Shown one piece after another: positions 1 through 7,192 of a DNA stretch of 7,192 nucleotides. The position numbers were made by a program, and so were the translations under genes. How positions within the stretch are numbered: position 1 is the first letter of the stretch; the number at the start of each line of letters is the position of its first letter. Origin of the DNA: a virus. Lineage: Duplodnaviria; Heunggongvirae; Uroviricota; Caudoviricetes. The DNA lies in IMG/VR virus record IMGVR_UViG_2740892233_000001, positions 1-7,192 of that record. The stretch is one strand, 5' to 3'. The notes beneath the pieces were generated by a model. That model made no database searches and was not told the origin of the DNA. It saw nothing but the letters and a program-made list of their open reading frames with translations.

Positions 1-269
1 TCACCGGCGCTGAATACACGGGCGAAGAGCTGGACAGCGATACCTGGCAGGCGGAGCTGCATATTGAAGTTTTCCTGCCTGCTCAGGTGCCGGATTCAGA
101 GCTGGATGCGTGGATGGAGTCCCGGATTTATCCGGTGATGAGCGATATCCCGGCACTGGCAGGACTGATTACCACGATGGTTACGCAGGGCTATGAGTAT
201 CGTCGTGATGACGATATGGCGTTATGGAGTTCTGCAGATCTGACTTATTCCATTACATACGAGATGTGA
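1..269 (+). CDS. U: Tail terminator protein U (gpU-like), 3' portion only; 5' end lies upstream of the window
   Basis: Reading frame is open from the window start (codons from nt 3) to TGA at 267-269. The translation (...[88 protein letters not shown]) matches the C-terminus of lambda gpU as I recall it. It sits immediately upstream of the V homolog, as in lambda. The ATG at 87 in the ORF track is internal, not the true start. Confidence 0.85.
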
Positions 270-276
270 GGACGAT

Positions 277-1248
277 ATGGCAACACCAAATCCCCTTGAG
301 CCGGTAAAAGGTGCCGGTACCACTCTGTGGGTTTACAACGGCAAGGGTGATGCTTATGCAAACCCGTTGTCAGACGATGACTGGCAGCGACTGGCTAAGG
401 TGAAGGATCTGACGCCGGGCGAGATGACGGCAGAACCCTACGATGATAACTACCTGGATGATGAAGACGCGGACTGGACCGCGACCGGGCAGGGGCAGAA
501 GTCTGCAGGAGATACCAGTTTTACGCTGGCCTGGAAACCGGGAGAAGAAGGTCAGAAAGGGCTTATAGGCTGGTTTGAAAGCGGGGATGTGCGGGCCTAT
601 AAAATCCGTTTCCCAAATGGCACGGTGGATGTGTTCCGTGGCTGGGTCAGCAGTATCGGTAAGGCCGTAACGGCGAAGGAAGTGATCACCCGTACGGTGA
701 AAGTGACCAACGTGGGTAAACCTTCTGTGGCGGAAGAACGCAGCGAAATTACGCCGGTCACTGCGATTAAGGTGACGCCGACATCTGGTACGGTGGCAAA
801 AGGGAAAACAACAACCCTGACGGTTTCTTTTGAGCCGGAAAGTGCAACCGACAAAACGTTCAGAGCGGTTTCCGCCGNNNNNNNNNNGACGGCGAAAGAA
901 GTGATCACCCGCACGGTGAAAGTGACCAACGTGGGCAAACCTTCTGTAGCGGAAGAACGCAGCAAAATTACGCCGGTCACTGCGATTAAGGTGACGCCGA
1001 CATCCGGTACGGTGGCAAAAGGGAAAACAACCACCCTGACGGTTTCTTTTGAGCCGGAAAGTGCAACCGACAAAACGTTCAGAGCGGTTTCCGCCGATCC
1101 GTCAACGGGAACCATTGCTGTGAAAGATATGGCGATCACTGTGACGGGGGTTAAGGCTGGAAAAGTGAGTATCCCCGTGATTTCCGGTAATGGTCAGTTT
1201 GCCACGGTAGCTGAAGTCACCGTTACTGAAGCGGGCGCTGCAGGGTAA
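277..1248 (+). CDS. V: Major tail tube protein V (gpV-like) with C-terminal Ig-like (Big_2-type) domain; ORF length inflated by an N10 gap plus a duplicated 209-bp segment
   Basis: ATG at 277 is preceded by AGGA (269-272); stop TAA at 1246-1248. N-terminus ([49 protein letters not shown]...) and C-terminus (...FRAVSAD...[14 protein letters not shown]) are colinear with lambda gpV (246 aa in lambda). The 323-aa ORF here contains XXXX from Ns at 878-887 and a repeated [20 protein letters not shown]...FRAVSA block. Confidence 0.85.
669..1096 (+). repeat. Direct repeat pair (669-877 and 888-1096, about 209 bp each) separated by N10 at 878-887, inside V; probable scaffold join
   Basis: The two copies are about 96% identical. 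Differences are mostly at third codon positions, with one amino-acid change (E to K). The period of 219 nt is a multiple of 3, so the frame is preserved. Confidence 0.9.
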
Positions 1249-1261
1249 ACGGAGGTAATAC

Positions 1262-1693
1262 ATGTTTCTGAAAACCGAACAATTTGAATATAACGGTGTG
1301 TCCGTCACGCTTTCCGAGCTGTCTGCGCTGCAGCGTATCGAGCATCTTGCCCTGCTGAAACGACGGGCAGAACAGGCTGAAGCCAGCGGTAACCTGCAGG
1401 TGAGCGTGGAAGACCTTGTCAGAACCGGCGCGTTTCTGGTGGCGATGTCCCTGTGGCATAACCATCCACAGAAAACGGAGTCACCATCAATGAATGAGGC
1501 TGTGATGCAGATCGAACAGGAGGTGCTCACCACCTGGCCTGCTGATGCCATTGCCCGGGCGGAAGACGTGGTGTTGCGTCTGTCCGGGATGAGCGGGGCT
1601 GTTCATGTGGATACGGATATCACCGAAGTGGCGAAAAATAACGCGCTTACTGATGATGATTTTTCTGCGGGAAAGTCTTCGACGGCGAGCTGA
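1262..1693 (+). CDS. G: Tail assembly chaperone G (gpG-like)
   Basis: GGAGG at 1251-1255, then ATG at 1262; stop TGA at 1691-1693; 143 aa. Translation (MFLKTEQFEYNGVSVTLSELSALQRIEHLALLKRRAEQAEA...) matches lambda gpG. It contains the slippery heptamer near its 3' end. Confidence 0.9.
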   Translation: MFLKTEQFEYNGVSVTLSELSALQRIEHLALLKRRAEQAEASGNLQVSVEDLVRTGAFLVAMSLWHNHPQKTESPSMNEAVMQIEQEVLTTWPADAIARAEDVVLRLSGMSGAVHVDTDITEVAKNNALTDDDFSAGKSSTAS

Positions 1694-2133
1694 ACTTTGC
1701 CCTCAGACTGGCGCGTGAGATGGGGAGACCCGACTGGCGCGCCATGCTTGCCGGGATGACATCCACCGAATATGCCGACTGGCACCGTTTTTACCGCACG
1801 CATTATTTTCAGGATACCCAGCTGGATATGCATTTTTCCGGGCTGACGTACGCTGTACTCAGCCTGTTTTTTTGCGATCCGGATATGCATCCCTCTGATT
1901 TCAGTCTGCTTGTCCCCCGGCATGAGGAAGAGCAGGTGGAGAGGCTGGATGAGGACAAAATGCTGATGCAGAAAGCGGCAGGACTTGCCGGAGGCGTCCG
2001 GTTCGGTGGGGACGGAGGGGGCGATATTTTATCGTCTGCGGATGTGGCGGATGTCATGGTGGATGATGCCGCATTAATGATGGCTTCAGCGGGGATTTCC
2101 GGAGGTGTGAGATATGTCCCAGCCGGTTGGTGA
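1262..2133 (+). CDS. GT: Tail assembly chaperone G-T fusion (gpGT-like) made by programmed -1 ribosomal frameshift at 1669-1675; the T-frame part runs 1675-2133
   Basis: G GGA AAG lies in the zero frame of G at 1669-1675. The -1 frame is open from there (GK/VFDGELNFALRLAREMGRPDWRAMLAGM...) to TGA at 2131-2133. The T-frame translation matches lambda gpT. The ATG at 1720 in the ORF track is internal to this frame and has no upstream ribosome-binding site of its own. Confidence 0.8.
1669..1675 (+). other. -1 programmed ribosomal frameshift slippery heptamer GGGAAAG (X XXY YYZ type)
   Basis: The heptamer sits in the correct phase (G GGA AAG) 18 nt upstream of the G stop codon. This is the same heptamer and arrangement as the lambda G/G-T recoding site. 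Confidence 0.8.
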
Positions 2134-4825
2134 TCTTGTTATTGACCTTAGTCTGGATGCGGTCCGTTTCGATGAGCAGATGAGCCGGGTAAGGCGTCAT
2201 TTTTCAGGTCTGGATACCGACGCCAGAAAAACCGCCAGTGCTGTTGAACAGGGCCTGAGCCGCCAGGCGCTGGCTGCACAAAAAGCCGGGATTTCCGTCG
2301 GGCAGTATAAAGCGGCCATGCGAACCCTGCCCGCACAGTTTACGGATATCGCCACGCAGCTTGCCGGTGGTCAGAATCCCTGGCTGATCCTGCTGCAACA
2401 GGGCGGTCAGGTGAAGGACTCCTTCGGCGGGATGATCCCCATGCTCAGGGGGCTTGCCGGTGCGATCACCCTGCCGATGGTCGGGGTCACCTCGCTGGCG
2501 GTGGCGACAGGTGCGCTGGCGTACGCCTGGTACCAGGGGGATTCCACGCTTTCAGCGTTTAATAAAACCCTGGTTCTTTCCGGTAATCAGTCCGGACTGA
2601 CTGCCGATCGCATGTTGACGCTCTCCAGAGCCGGACAGGCCGCAGGGCTGACGTTTAACCAGGCGAGTGAGTCACTGGCAGCCCTGGTGAATGCCGGTGT
2701 GCGTGGTGGTGAACAGTTTGATGCCATCAACCNNNNNNNNNNTATGCTGACTCTCTCAAGAGCCGGGCAGGCAGCAGGGCTGACGTTTAACCAGGCGAGA
2801 GAGTCACTGGCAGCCCTGGTGAATGCCGGTGTGCGTGGTGGTGAACAGTTTGATGCCATCAACCAGAGTGTCGCGCGTTTTGCGTCTGCATCCGGTGTGG
2901 AGGTGGATAAAGTCGCTGAAGCCTTCGGGAAGCTGACCACTGACCCGACGTCGGGACTGATGGCGATGGCGCGCCAGTTCCGTAACGTGACGGCAGAGCA
3001 GATTGCGTATGTTGCACAGCTGCAGCGTTCCGGAGACGAGGCCGGGGCATTGCAGGCGGCGAACGATATCGCCACGAAAGGCTTTGATGAGCAGACCCGT
3101 CGCCTGAAAGAAAACATGGGAACACTGGAGACCTGGGCGGATAAAACAGGGAAGGCATTCAAATCGATGTGGGATGCCATTCTGGATATCGGTCGTCCGG
3201 AATCCTCAGCGGATATGCTCGCCAGTGCGCAGAAGGCATTTGATGAGGCGGATAAAAAATGGCAGTGGTACCAGAGTCGGAGCCAGCGCCGCGGTAAAAC
3301 CTCCTCTTTCCGGGCCAACCTTCAGGGCGCATGGAATGACCGGGAAAATGCCCGTCTGGGGCTGGCAGCGGCCACGCTGCAGTCGGATATGGAAAAAGCC
3401 GGTGAACTGGCCGCCAGGGACCGGGCCGAACGGGACGCATCACAGCTGAAGTATACCGGAGAGGCGCAGAAGGCGTATGAGCGTCTGCTGACGCCGCTGG
3501 AGAAATATACCGCCCGTCAGGAAGAACTGAATAAGGCCCTGAAAGACGGGAAAATCCTGCAGGCGGATTACAACACGCTGATGGCGGCGGCGAAAAAGGA
3601 TTATGAATCGACGCTGAAAAAGCCGAAGTCGTCAGGAGTCAAAGTGTCAGCCGGTGAGCGTCAGGAAGACCAGGCGCATGCTGCCCTGCTGGCGCTTGAA
3701 ACCGAGCTCCGGACGCTGGAAAAACACAGCGGTGCGAATGGGAAAATCAGCCAGCAGCGTCGCGATTTATGGAAAGCGGAAAATCAGTATGCGGTCCTGA
3801 AAGAGGCAGCCACGAAACGGCAGTTATCTGAGCAGGAAAAATCCCTGCTGACCCATGAGAAAGAGACGCTGGAGTACAAACGCCAGCTGGCTGAGCTGGG
3901 AGACAAAGTTGAACACCAGAAACGGCTGAATGAGCTGGCACAGCAGGCTGCGCGGTTTGAGCAGCAGCAGGGCGCGAAGCAGGCGGCAATCAGTGCCCAG
4001 GCGCGGGGCCTCACCGACCGTCAGGTGCAGCGGGAGTCGGAAGAGCAGCGCCTTCGTGACGTGTACGGTGATAATCCGGATGCGCTGGCGAAGGCCACAT
4101 CTGCACTGAAGAACACCTGGTCTGCGGAGGAGCAGCTTCGTGGAAGCTGGATGGCCGGTCTGAAGTCCGGCTGGGGCGAGTGGGCAGAAAGTGCGACGGA
4201 CAGTTTTTCGCAGGTTAAAAGCGTGGCCACGCAGACCTTTGACGGTATTGCACAGAATATGGCAGCGATGCTGACCGGCAGCGAACAGAGCTGGCGTGGT
4301 TTCACCCGTTCTGTGCTCTCCATGCTGACAGAGATTTTTCTGAAGCAGGCCATGGTGGGGATTGTCGGGAGTATTGGCAGCGCCATGGGTGGTGCTTTCG
4401 GTGGTGGGGCGTCTGCCTCCACGGGGACGGCCATTCAGGCTGCGGCGGCGAACTTCCATTTCGCGACCGGAGGATTTACGGGAACCGGTGGCAAATACGA
4501 ACCTGCCGGTATTGTCCACCGCGGGGAGTTTGTCTTCACGAAGGAGGCAACCAGCCGGATTGGCGTCGGCAACCTGTATCGTCTGATGCGCGGGTATGCG
4601 GAAGGTGGTTATGTGGGCGGTGCCGGAAGTCCGGCGCAGATGCGGCGGGCGGAAGGCATTAGTTTTAATCAGAACAATCACGTGGTGATTCAGAACGACG
4701 GCACCAACGGACAGGCGGGGCCGCAGCTGATGAAGGCGGTGTATGACATGGCCCGCAAGGGGGCGCAGGATGAGATTCAGGCGCAGATGCGTGATGGCGG
4801 CGTCTTTTCCGGAGGCAGGCGATGA
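2114..4825 (+). CDS. H: Tail tape measure protein H (gpH-like); ORF length inflated by an N10 gap plus a duplicated 122-bp segment
   Basis: GGAGG at 2101-2105, ATG at 2114 (overlaps the end of the T frame by 20 nt), stop TGA at 4823-4825. Translation is colinear with lambda gpH (853 aa in lambda) at both ends (MSQPVGDLVIDLSLDAVRFDEQM... and ...GGFTGTGGKYEPAGIVHRGEFVFTKEATSRIGVGNLYRLMRGYA...). The central part is coiled-coil-like and rich in A, Q, E, K and R. The 903-aa ORF here contains XXXX from Ns at 2733-2742 and a repeated MLTLSRAGQAAGLTFNQA.ESLAALVNAGVRGGEQFDAIN block. Confidence 0.9.
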   Translation: MSQPVGDLVIDLSLDAVRFDEQMSRVRRHFSGLDTDARKTASAVEQGLSRQALAAQKAGISVGQYKAAMRTLPAQFTDIATQLAGGQNPWLILLQQGGQVKDSFGGMIPMLRGLAGAITLPMVGVTSLAVATGALAYAWYQGDSTLSAFNKTLVLSGNQSGLTADRMLTLSRAGQAAGLTFNQASESLAALVNAGVRGGEQFDAINXXXXMLTLSRAGQAAGLTFNQARESLAALVNAGVRGGEQFDAINQSVARFASASGVEVDKVAEAFGKLTTDPTSGLMAMARQFRNVTAEQIAYVAQLQRSGDEAGALQAANDIATKGFDEQTRRLKENMGTLETWADKTGKAFKSMWDAILDIGRPESSADMLASAQKAFDEADKKWQWYQSRSQRRGKTSSFRANLQGAWNDRENARLGLAAATLQSDMEKAGELAARDRAERDASQLKYTGEAQKAYERLLTPLEKYTARQEELNKALKDGKILQADYNTLMAAAKKDYESTLKKPKSSGVKVSAGERQEDQAHAALLALETELRTLEKHSGANGKISQQRRDLWKAENQYAVLKEAATKRQLSEQEKSLLTHEKETLEYKRQLAELGDKVEHQKRLNELAQQAARFEQQQGAKQAAISAQARGLTDRQVQRESEEQRLRDVYGDNPDALAKATSALKNTWSAEEQLRGSWMAGLKSGWGEWAESATDSFSQVKSVATQTFDGIAQNMAAMLTGSEQSWRGFTRSVLSMLTEIFLKQAMVGIVGSIGSAMGGAFGGGASASTGTAIQAAAANFHFATGGFTGTGGKYEPAGIVHRGEFVFTKEATSRIGVGNLYRLMRGYAEGGYVGGAGSPAQMRRAEGISFNQNNHVVIQNDGTNGQAGPQLMKAVYDMARKGAQDEIQAQMRDGGVFSGGRR
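2611..2864 (+). repeat. Direct repeat pair (2611-2732 and 2743-2864, 122 bp each) separated by N10 at 2733-2742, inside H; probable scaffold join
   Basis: About 8 mismatches in 122 bp, one non-synonymous (S to R). The period of 132 nt is a multiple of 3. Confidence 0.9.
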
Positions 4826-5151
4826 AAACATTTCGCTGGAAAGTGAAGCCGGATATGGAGGTGAACTCGCAGCCATCGGTGCGTGAAGTGCGTTTTGGTG
4901 ACGGGTATTCGCAGCGTATGGCGGCGGGGCTGAATGCTGACCTGAAAACATACCGTGTGACGCTTTCCGTGACCCGGGAGAAGGCCCGACATCTGGAGGC
5001 ATTCCTGGCAGAGCACGGTGGCTGGAAGGCGTTTCTGTGGACACCGCCTTATGCCTGGCGGCAGATAAAGGTGACCTGTGCCGCCTGGTCATCACGGGTT
5101 CGCATGCTGCGGGTTGAATTCAGCGCGGAGTTTAAGCAGGTGGTGAACTGA
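4822..5151 (+). CDS. M: Minor tail protein M (gpM-like)
   Basis: ATG at 4822 overlaps the H stop (ATGA); GGAGG at 4811-4815; stop TGA at 5149-5151; 109 aa, the same length as lambda gpM. Translation (MKTFRWKVKPDMEVNSQPSVREVRFGDGYSQR...RVEFSAEFKQVVN) matches lambda gpM. Confidence 0.9.
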   Translation: MKTFRWKVKPDMEVNSQPSVREVRFGDGYSQRMAAGLNADLKTYRVTLSVTREKARHLEAFLAEHGGWKAFLWTPPYAWRQIKVTCAAWSSRVRMLRVEFSAEFKQVVN

Positions 5152-5849
5152 TGCAGGATATTCACGAAGAAAGTCTGAACGAGTCGGTTAAATCAGAGCA
5201 GTCACCGCGGGTGGTACTCTGGGAAATCGACCTGACGGTACAGGGTGGTGAGCGGTATTTTTTCTGTAATGAGCTGAATGAAAAAGGGGAGCCGGTCACC
5301 TGGCAGGGGCGTAAGTATGAGGCATACCCGATTGACGGCAGCGGCTTTGAGATGAACGGCCGGGGCAGCAGTGCCCGCCCGTCGCTGACGGTGTCCAATC
5401 TGTTTGGCCTTGTCACCGGGATGGCGGAGGACCTGCAGAGTCTGGTGGGGGCCACGGTGGTCCGCCGCCGGGTGTATGCCCGTTTTCTGGATGCGGTGAA
5501 TTTCGTTGCGGGCAATCCGGAGGCGGACCCGGAGCAGGAGCTGAGTGACCGCTGGGTGGTGGAGCAGATGTCGCAGCTGACAGCCATGACGGCCTCGTTT
5601 GTGCTGGCTACACCGACCGAGACGGATGGGGCGCTGTTTCCCGGTCGCATCATGCTGGCGAACACCTGTATGTGGGATTACCGGGGAGATGAATGCGGGT
5701 ATAACGGTCCTGCGGTGGCGGATGAGTTCGACAACCCCACCACGGATATCCGTAAGGACAGATGCAGCAAGTGCATGCGCGGGTGTGAACTGCGCAGGAA
5801 TGTCGGCAATTTTGGCGGTTTCCTTTCCATTAATAAACTTTCGCAGTAA
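5151..5849 (+). CDS. L: Minor tail protein L (gpL-like) with C-terminal cysteine cluster
   Basis: ATG at 5151 overlaps the M stop (TGATG); stop TAA at 5847-5849; 232 aa, the same length as lambda gpL. Translation (MQDIHEESLNE...GERYFFCNELNEKGEPVTWQGRKYEAYPIDGSGFE...GNFGGFLSINKLSQ) matches lambda gpL. Confidence 0.9.
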   Translation: MQDIHEESLNESVKSEQSPRVVLWEIDLTVQGGERYFFCNELNEKGEPVTWQGRKYEAYPIDGSGFEMNGRGSSARPSLTVSNLFGLVTGMAEDLQSLVGATVVRRRVYARFLDAVNFVAGNPEADPEQELSDRWVVEQMSQLTAMTASFVLATPTETDGALFPGRIMLANTCMWDYRGDECGYNGPAVADEFDNPTTDIRKDRCSKCMRGCELRRNVGNFGGFLSINKLSQ

Positions 5850-5859
5850 ATCCCGGTTT

Positions 5860-6878
5860 ATGACACAGACTGAATCAGCGATTCTGGCGCATGCCCGGCG
5901 GTGTGCGCCTGCGGAGTCGTGCGGCTTCGTGNNNNNNNNNNCGATTCTGGCGCATGCCCGGCGGTGTGTGCCTGCGGAGTCGTGCGGCTTCGTGGTGAGA
6001 ACGCCGGAGGGGGAGCGGTATATCCCTTGTGTGAATATCTCTGCAGAGCCGGAGGCGTATTTTCGTATTGCACCGGAAGACTGGCTGCGGGCAGAGATGC
6101 AGGGTGAGATTGTGGCGCTGGTCCACAGCCACCCCGGTGGTCTGCCCTGGCTGAGCGAGGCCGACCGGCGGCTGCAGATAAAAAGTGCACTGTCCTNNNN
6201 NNNNNNATAAGCACGCCGGAGGGGGAGTGGTATATCCCTTGTGTGAATATTTCTGCAGAGCCGGAGGCGTATTTTCGTATCGCACCGGAAGACTGGCTGC
6301 GGGCAGAGATGCAGGGGGAGATTGTGGCACTGGTCCACAGTCATCCCGGTGGTCTGCCCTGGCTGAGCGAGGCCGACCGGCGGCTGCAGATAAAAAGTGC
6401 ACTGTCCTGGTGGCTGGTCTGCCGGGGGGAAATTCATAAATTCCGCTGTGTGCCACATCTGACAGGACGGCGCTTTGAGCACGGGGTGACGGACTGTTAC
6501 ACGCTGTTCCGGGATGCATACCATCTGGCGGGAATTGATATGCCGGATTTTGAGCGTGAGGATGACTGGTGGCGCAACGGTCAGAACCTTTACCTGGACA
6601 ATATGGCGGTCACCGGCTTTTACCGGGTGCCCCTGTCCTCTGCACAGGCGGGCGATATCCTGCTGTGCTGCTTTGGCGCATCGGTGGCCAATCATGCCGC
6701 CATTTACTGCGGCAACGGTGAACTGCTTCACCATCTGCCTGAACAACTGAGTAAACGGGAGAGGTATTCCGAAAAATGGCAACGACGAACGCATTCTGTC
6801 TGGCGTCACCGCCACTGGCACGCATCTGCCTTCACGGGGATTTACAACGATTTGGCCGCCGCCTCAGCCTGTACGTGA
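5860..6878 (+). CDS. K: Tail tip assembly protein K (gpK-like; N-terminal JAMM/MPN-like domain plus C-terminal NlpC/P60-like domain); reading frame interrupted by two N10 gaps with duplicated segments
   Basis: ATG at 5860 is 10 nt after the L stop (MTQTESAILAHARRCAPAESCGFV...). The HSHPGGLPWLSEAD motif (HxHx7Sx2D) is at 6124-6165. The NlpC/P60-like DCYTLF cysteine is at 6495-6497 and the NHAAIY histidine at 6693-6695. Stop TGA at 6876-6878. After removing the duplicated segments (63 nt and 212 nt) the gene would encode about 247 aa. The frame changes from 1 to 0 across the gap at 6197-6206, which is why the ORF track splits it into 5599-6210 and 6243-6878. Confidence 0.8.
5879..5994 (+). repeat. 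Direct repeat pair (5879-5931 and 5942-5994, 53 bp each) separated by N10 at 5932-5941, near the 5' end of K; probable scaffold join
   Basis: One mismatch (GCG to GTG, A to V). The period of 63 nt is a multiple of 3. Confidence 0.9.
5995..6408 (+). repeat. Direct repeat pair (5995-6196 and 6207-6408, about 202 bp each) separated by N10 at 6197-6206, inside K; probable scaffold join, frame-breaking
   Basis: About 10 mismatches, mostly synonymous (one R to W, one R to S). The offset of 212 nt is not a multiple of 3, so the K frame shifts from frame 1 to frame 0. Confidence 0.9.
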
Positions 6879-6938
6879 ACACGGCAGCGGAAGCCATCCG
6901 GGCGCTGTCGTTACAGGTGCCGGGATTCCGCCGTCAGA
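6776..6938 (+). CDS. I: Tail assembly protein I (gpI-like), 5' portion only; truncated by the N block at 6939
   Basis: ATG at 6776 is the first start after an in-frame TAA at 6752-6754, and overlaps the 3' end of K by 103 nt in a different frame. The same overlap length is annotated for lambda K/I, as far as I recall. Translation is MATTNAFCLASPPLARICLHGDLQRFGRRLSLYVNTAAEAIRALSLQVPGFRRQ. An alternative start is GTG at 6875 overlapping the K stop (GTGA). The same start region recurs at 7135-7192 in the second K fragment. Confidence 0.45.
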
Positions 6939-6949
6939 NNNNNNNNNNG

Positions 6950-7192
6950 TACCTGGACAATATGGAGGCGACTGGTTTTTACAGGATTTCCCTGCCTTCC
7001 GCACAGCCTGGCGATATCCTGCTGTGCTGCTTTGGCGCATCGGTGGCCAATCATGCCGCCATATACTGCGGCAACGGTGAGCTGCTTCACCATCTGCCTG
7101 AACAACTGAGTAAACGGGAGAGGTATTTCGAAAAATGGCAACGACGAACGCATTCAGCCTGGCGTCACCGCCACTGGCACGTATCTGCCTTC
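6950..7192 (+). CDS. K: Second, more divergent copy of the 3' part of a K-like gene (internal fragment, no start or stop in window), lying after an N10 gap
   Basis: Translation YLDNMEATGFYRISLPSAQPGDILLCCFGASVANHAAIYCGNGELLHHLPEQLSKRERYFEKWQRRTHSAWRHRHWHVSAF is paralogous to the product of 6591-6833 (YLDNMAVTGFYRVPLSSAQAGDILLCCFGASVANHAAIY...). The nucleotide sequence is clearly diverged in the first 70 bp or so and near-identical afterwards. Confidence 0.7.

Follow-up and report, generated by a model that had tools for sequence, protein, structure and literature searches.

A repeated K 3' end in a lambda-type tail module record from Escherichia coli, probably scaffolded from paralogous prophages

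Background

How does a phage sequence that has already passed out of the tail gene K and into gene I come to read the 3' part of K again, and with clearly different bases? The window, by which we mean the entire 7192-nt stretch that was analysed, is identical over its full length to a complete public record (CCPX01000101.1, assembly GCA_000752875.1), and the return to K lies at its very end. A preliminary description, made from the letters alone, took it to imply at least two distinct lambdoid tail modules in the source, and read the point of return as a mosaic boundary between two related modules, unlike the other joins.

Since the O157 Sakai genome, and through the comparative studies that came after it, it has been known that one EHEC genome can hold many lambdoid prophages which are mosaic and almost identical to one another. 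Both O157 and non-O157 (O26, O111, O103) EHEC carry several lambda-like prophages that closely resemble each other (PMC2323221), and paralogous prophage sequences have been found to be unresolvable by short reads (PMC5359411).

Results and discussion

Gene content of the tail module

The window encodes, on a single (+) strand, a lambda-type tail module with the gene order U, V, G, T, H, M, L, K and I (Table 1). The assignment comes from Pfam matches, with which the RefSeq annotation of relatives agrees: in the order of the genes, these are Phage_tail_U, Phage_TTP_12 together with Big_2 (V), Phage_TAC_2, Phage_tail_T, TMP_2 together with Tape_meas_lam_C, Phage_min_tail, Phage_tail_L, Prok-JAB together with NLPC_P60 (K), and Lambda_tail_I (I). 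The T frame is preceded by a single copy of the heptamer GGGAAAG, close to the 3' end of G; lambda has this heptamer at its G/GT -1 frameshift, and it is a candidate site here.

The domain pair of the gpK family, JAB/MPN at the N terminus and an NlpC/P60 peptidase at the C terminus, is present in a full-length K relative from E. coli 03_3013 (8929-9669 of the prophage locus L003, with Prok-JAB at 9e-15 and NLPC_P60 at 3e-13), and the K fragment after the last gap of the window matches positions 40-105 of the NLPC_P60 profile at 5e-8. The translation of 6776-6937 matches Lambda_tail_I (PF06805) at 8.6e-9 over residues 15-53. In bacteriophage lambda, where K and I are tail tip assembly proteins, K likewise combines JAB/MPN and NlpC/P60 domains and I belongs to Lambda_tail_I. 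The I frames of lambda and of the window both open before K has ended. The alleles are nevertheless diverged from those of lambda, and many records of the phage collection match at only 60-90%.

Read from its lambda-type start, which is 103 nt inside K, I matches Lambda_tail_I from residue 15 onward. RefSeq relatives place the start of I instead at a GTG overlapping the K stop (12244-12825 of L001, a second prophage locus of 03_3013, and 9669-10250 of L003). Given the point at which the domain match begins, the I proteins of these relatives are probably truncated, lacking 33 N-terminal residues.

Table 1. Features of the 7192-nt window
Feature	Position	Strand	Content or basis
U, 3' part	1-269	+	Pfam
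G	1262-1693	+	Pfam
GGGAAAG heptamer	1669-1675	+	Single copy, close to G 3' end, then T frame
T frame, separate ATG-started ORF	1720-2133	+	Pfam
H, tape measure	up to 4825	+	Pfam
M	4822-5151	+	Pfam
L	5151-5849	+	Pfam
K	start 5860, stop 6876-6878	+	JAB and NlpC/P60 domains
I, start only	lambda-type ATG 6776; RefSeq-style GTG 6875	+	Lambda_tail_I
Contig 1	1-877	+	U 3' part (1-269), V as far as Ig-like domain
Scaffold gap 1	878-887	.	10 N
Contig 2	888-2732	+	V 3' part, G, T frame, H 5' part
Scaffold gap 2	2733-2742	.	10 N
Contig 3	2743-5931	+	H (to 4825), M, L, first 72 nt of K
Scaffold gap 3	5932-5941	.	10 N
Contig 4	5942-6196	+	255 nt; second-allele K positions 20-274
Scaffold gap 4	6197-6206	.	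10 N
Contig 5	6207-6938	+	K positions 73-744, then start of I
Variable patch of K, allele A	6590-6650	+	15 of 21 differences and 6 of 9 amino-acid changes; within NlpC/P60 domain
Scaffold gap 5	6939-6948	.	10 N; join with the K repeat of the preliminary description
Contig 6	6949-7192	+	244 nt, last in record; second-allele K positions 456-699, I start at 7135
T at 7128	7128	+	Ser to Phe in K, NlpC/P60 domain; in L014 (2228-2266)

Contigs, gaps and overlaps

Five runs of N, each of exactly 10, divide the record into six contigs of 877, 1845, 3189, 255, 732 and 244 nt. At all five joins the contig after the gap repeats the end of the one before it. Positions 669-877 are read again by contig 2 (209 nt, 8 mismatches, 96.2% identity) and 2611-2732 by contig 3 (122 nt, 7 mismatches, 94.3%); the overlap at join 3 is of 53 nt at 98.1%, with a single mismatch at offset 28, that at join 4 of 202 nt at 95.0%, and that at join 5 of 244 nt at 91.4%, the last being both the longest and the most divergent. 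In every complete genome the six pieces map to a single collinear stretch of tail genes, about 6307 bp long.

At join 5, no gap is needed to align 6949-7192 with 6590-6833. The two copies differ at 21 of 244 positions, and 15 of these differences lie in the opening 68 nt (binomial P = 4e-5). The peptides of the two copies (YLDNMAVTGFYRVPLSSAQAGD... versus YLDNMEATGFYRISLPSAQPGD...) differ at 9 of 81 residues, and the diverged K codons translate as ...NMAVTGFYRVPLSSAQAGD... versus ...NMEATGFYRISLPSAQPGD.... Contig 5 continues beyond the K stop into I. Both copies have a lambda-type ATG for I, at 6776 and, in the same sequence context, at 7135 in contig 6; over residues 1-19 of I they differ by a single amino acid. 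Much of the preliminary description thus stands: a second, more divergent K 3' end and I start do follow the last gap, the sequence before that gap has already entered I, and the peptides quoted for the two copies are correct. Its contrast of this join with the others holds in one respect and fails in another, for all five contigs re-read their predecessors, and only contig 6 lies wholly within the span of the preceding contig (6590-6833), adding nothing beyond it before the record stops at 7192. The possibility that contig 6 was merely cut by the edge of the window, with an overlap continuing to 6938, was rejected, since the window is the complete record and contig 6 a full contig of 244 nt.

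Two of the open reading frames run through the gaps, namely V (277-1248, 323 aa) and H (2114-4825, 903 aa). They stay open because overlap and gap together add 219 and 132 nt respectively, both multiples of three. The true lengths, as found in relatives, are 250 aa for V and 859 aa for H. Gene calls for the 323-aa V and the 903-aa H exist in the public collection, neither of them with a recorded Pfam match; they are artefactual chimeric proteins.

Contig edges follow a 64-nt rule

The edges of the contigs stand in a fixed relation to the differing bases. At joins 1, 2 and 4 the contig after the gap opens on a mismatch, and the contig before it stops exactly 64 nt past the last mismatch. Across the whole record the exact 64-nt distance is seen at the ends of contigs 1, 2, 4, 5 and 6, and a mismatch start at contigs 2, 3, 5 and 6. 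Contig 4 ends 64 nt past its last difference from contig 5 (6132, equivalent to 6344). Contig 5, which starts on a variant base, differs from an independent IMG/VR contig (L014) at 10 sites in 6207-6344, at none of the 245 bases of 6345-6589, at 21 sites in 6590-6823 and at one further site, 6874, with none in 6875-6938; its end at 6938 is thus 6874 plus 64. Contig 6 opens together with the second cluster, on the differing base (G versus T, K position 456) that follows the 245 shared ones, and ends at 7128 plus 64, the T at 7128 being its only difference from the allele of L001. This last distance calls for a third allele, in a further copy that must have the same sequence downstream of 7128 and, like L001, a C at that position. 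The G at 6949 was also considered as a stray base of a contig end, and this was rejected, as it is a genuine base of the L001 and L014 alleles.

A contig whose first k-mer has the variant as its last base, and whose last k-mer has the variant as its first base, is what is expected of a de Bruijn unitig with k = 65. Velvet-like output omits, after a gap, the leading k-1 bases of a node, and its minimum gap is 10 N. The record resembles the bubble and collapsed-repeat artefacts of Velvet-type scaffolds in the variant-base starts and the ends k-1 = 64 nt past a variant, in its divergent overlaps left unmerged, in the fixed 10-N bridges, and in the short contig of an alternative allele at the scaffold end. 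It differs from them at join 3, which does not suit a simple two-allele picture: with the alleles compared here, the 64-nt rule accounts for neither the end of contig 3 nor the start of contig 4, and L014 lacks the T found at 5969 of contig 4. These misfits probably reflect a further copy in the strain with its own K 5' allele, or else the break has another cause. Contigs 3 and 5 adjoin without overlap in 03_3013 (2912151 and 2912150), as expected of adjacent graph nodes from one copy.

Distribution of the alleles

Contig 6 is identical at 244 of 244 positions to L014, found in the IMG/VR scan, and contig 4 matches the same continuous K gene of L014 at 254 of 255. The within-genome comparison of alleles was made between two loci of E. 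coli 03_3013, L001 and L003, which are separate prophages at 3.877 Mb (3.88 Mb) and 2.91 Mb. Contig 6 matches the former at 243 of 244 positions. Contig 3 is 99.94% identical to the latter, which is also the nearest relative of contig 1 (99.1%). Contig 5 reaches 99.86% with a prophage of strain 2009C_3612 (L002) and 99.3% with L003. Both allele types thus occur in one genome in this relative of the source, which has 10 K/I places in all, and the genomes nearest to the record have 9-14 such places each; for the source strain itself we infer the same arrangement. The best match of contig 2 is a third type (L004, 99.57%). Among 5426 complete E. coli genomes, identity to the whole window at one locus is never above 97.9%, as against 99.6-99.9% for single segments. 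The allele of contig 6 recurs, with an identity of at least 99%, in 511 complete E. coli records and in 44 records of phages, the latter including Stx1a, Stx2a and Stx2c converting phages and CP-1639.

Between contig 3 and the H gene of the third type (6115-8676 of L004) identity is no more than about 79%, and the L004 product has 853 aa as compared to 859 aa. The H of the record is accordingly a fusion of two different tape-measure alleles, L004-like in contig 2 and L003-like in contig 3.

The corresponding prophage of the relatives shows two further features. One is an insertion of ISEc22 (IS66 family) that deletes the head genes lying between the S49 peptidase and U (L001 3569-5904, L002 989-3324). 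The other is a pair of type III effector genes, nleH and cif, which follow those for the tail fibres (L002 16293-18225), as is typical of effector-carrying lambdoid prophages.

The T at 7128 calls for separate mention. It was seen in none of the 5426 complete E. coli genomes, and a pattern scan of the genome-contig collection also gave none; a pattern spanning the gap likewise had no match in that collection. A sequencing error at this base was considered and rejected, for the same 244 nt recur in an independent contig, and T7128 is accordingly a real allele, if a rare one. The rare K allele, made up of contigs 4 and 6 with T7128, combines bases otherwise found in different allele types. Recent gene conversion between the resident prophages of this strain could produce such a combination, though we consider this very unlikely as its origin; were it true, the record would catch an exchange of tail sequence between prophages of one genome in progress.

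Origin of the repeated K end

The overlaps, the contig edges and the allele matches are very probably accounted for by a short-read de Bruijn scaffold, with k = 65, running across paralogous lambda-type tail modules of one E. coli strain. The source would be a single E. coli of the Shiga-toxin or attaching-effacing type, with several slightly different copies of the tail module. Stretches identical among the copies would have been merged into one contig, and each allele-specific stretch would have formed a short unitig of its own, from the first differing base to 64 nt past the last. Read pairs anchored in the collapsed stretches could then link paralogous contigs, and, with a divergence of 2-9% blocking their merger, the scaffolder would write them in series with a minimal gap of 10 N. 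Contig 6 would come from the second prophage copy, the source of contig 4 as well, and hold the 3' region of its K with the beginning of I. It would have been set after contig 5, where these codons stand in the form of the first copy. There would thus be no genomic duplication at join 5, and the two alleles would reside in different prophages. The overlaps, the 64-nt rule, the reality of both alleles and their coexistence in separate prophages of a close relative are established by the sequences, while the behaviour of the assembler and the number of copies in the source are what we infer.

The same layout would be produced if two E. coli strains had been present in a mixed or contaminated culture and their contigs interleaved by the assembler. 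We regard this as highly improbable: a second strain is unneeded where relatives carry 9-14 K/I places and 03_3013 has both types in separate prophages, and the presence of at least three allele types within 7 kb (L003-, L004- and L014-like) suits one poly-lysogen better than a mixture of two strains. A more literal reading of the record, and the strongest version of the mosaic boundary in the preliminary description, is that one prophage has a true partial tandem duplication of the K 3' end and I start, K-I'-K', and that two tail modules have recombined precisely at join 5. It could draw on the clustering of the differences near the start of the repeat and on the demonstrable mosaicism of lambdoid tail modules. 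It is nonetheless almost certainly wrong, as an N gap separates this repeat just as it does the four others of the record, the contig edges follow the k = 65 rule, all complete genomes have one collinear K-I, and L014 has ordinary K sequence, rather than I, ahead of the sequence shared with contig 6.

There is equally next to no likelihood that the divergent bases are low-quality or erroneous calls from a single K/I locus. Contig ends are generally error-prone, and the absence of T7128 from every complete E. coli genome searched might be held to favour such errors. Against them stand the exact presence of all 21 differences, T7128 included, in the independent L014, the occurrence of 20 of the 21 in hundreds of complete genomes and Stx phages, and the K and I frames, which stay open in both readings. 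The preferred reading thus remains that of a scaffold across paralogous modules of one strain.

Judged by these sequence matches, the record is chimeric, with parts from three or more paralogous tail modules, L003-like, L004-like and L014-like. The source holds at least two K/I alleles, and probably three or more. The central proposal of the preliminary description, of two or more distinct lambdoid tail modules in the source, is borne out by the matches of contig 6 and of contigs 3 and 5 to different prophages of 03_3013, and its count of two is probably too low. Its own caveat, that the divergent bases might be errors, was examined and they are not, in view of the full identity of contig 6 with L014 and its single difference from L001. 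Its mosaic boundary fared differently: the related modules do have the structure of mosaics, whereas the proposed boundary at 6949 does not hold.

Mosaic structure of the modules

L001 and L003, both from 03_3013, are identical over about 3.7 kb and elsewhere diverge by 3-10%. When L002 is included, difference-free blocks are interspersed with others that hold 3-30 differences per 100 nt, and the closest partner among the three loci switches block by block along K-I. This pattern marks the tail modules as recombination mosaics. The two K alleles of the record also differ in patches, at 6207-6344, which lies upstream of the shared stretch and is represented by contig 4, at 6590-6650 and at scattered sites thereafter, which is a patchwork rather than a single boundary, in agreement with known prophage mosaicism. 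Since 6949 is the first differing base after 245 shared ones, the divergent start of contig 6 and its later convergence were set by the assembler, and the edge there is that of a unitig and not a mapped recombination junction. The patches of the alleles neither date nor place a recombination event in the source strain.

The record closely parallels the paralogous prophages of EHEC/STEC, such as the Sakai Sp prophages and their equivalents in O26, O111 and O103. These share with it the same set and order of tail genes, multiple copies in a genome, with as many as 14 K/I places, long identical stretches (3.7 kb between L001 and L003) that alternate with blocks of 3-10% divergence, and, in some copies, the effector cargo nleH and cif after the tail fibres. 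There is no difference of substance; the exact T7128 allele is rare, with one IMG/VR contig and 0 of 5426 complete genomes.

Conclusions

What the record displays, by way of an assembly artefact, is biology that is already known. Records of this kind set sequence of different prophages side by side and yield artefactual proteins, and their value lies in caution only. Where prophages, tail alleles or Stx phages are typed from such drafts, the outcome would be miscounted copies, or false duplications and false recombination junctions.
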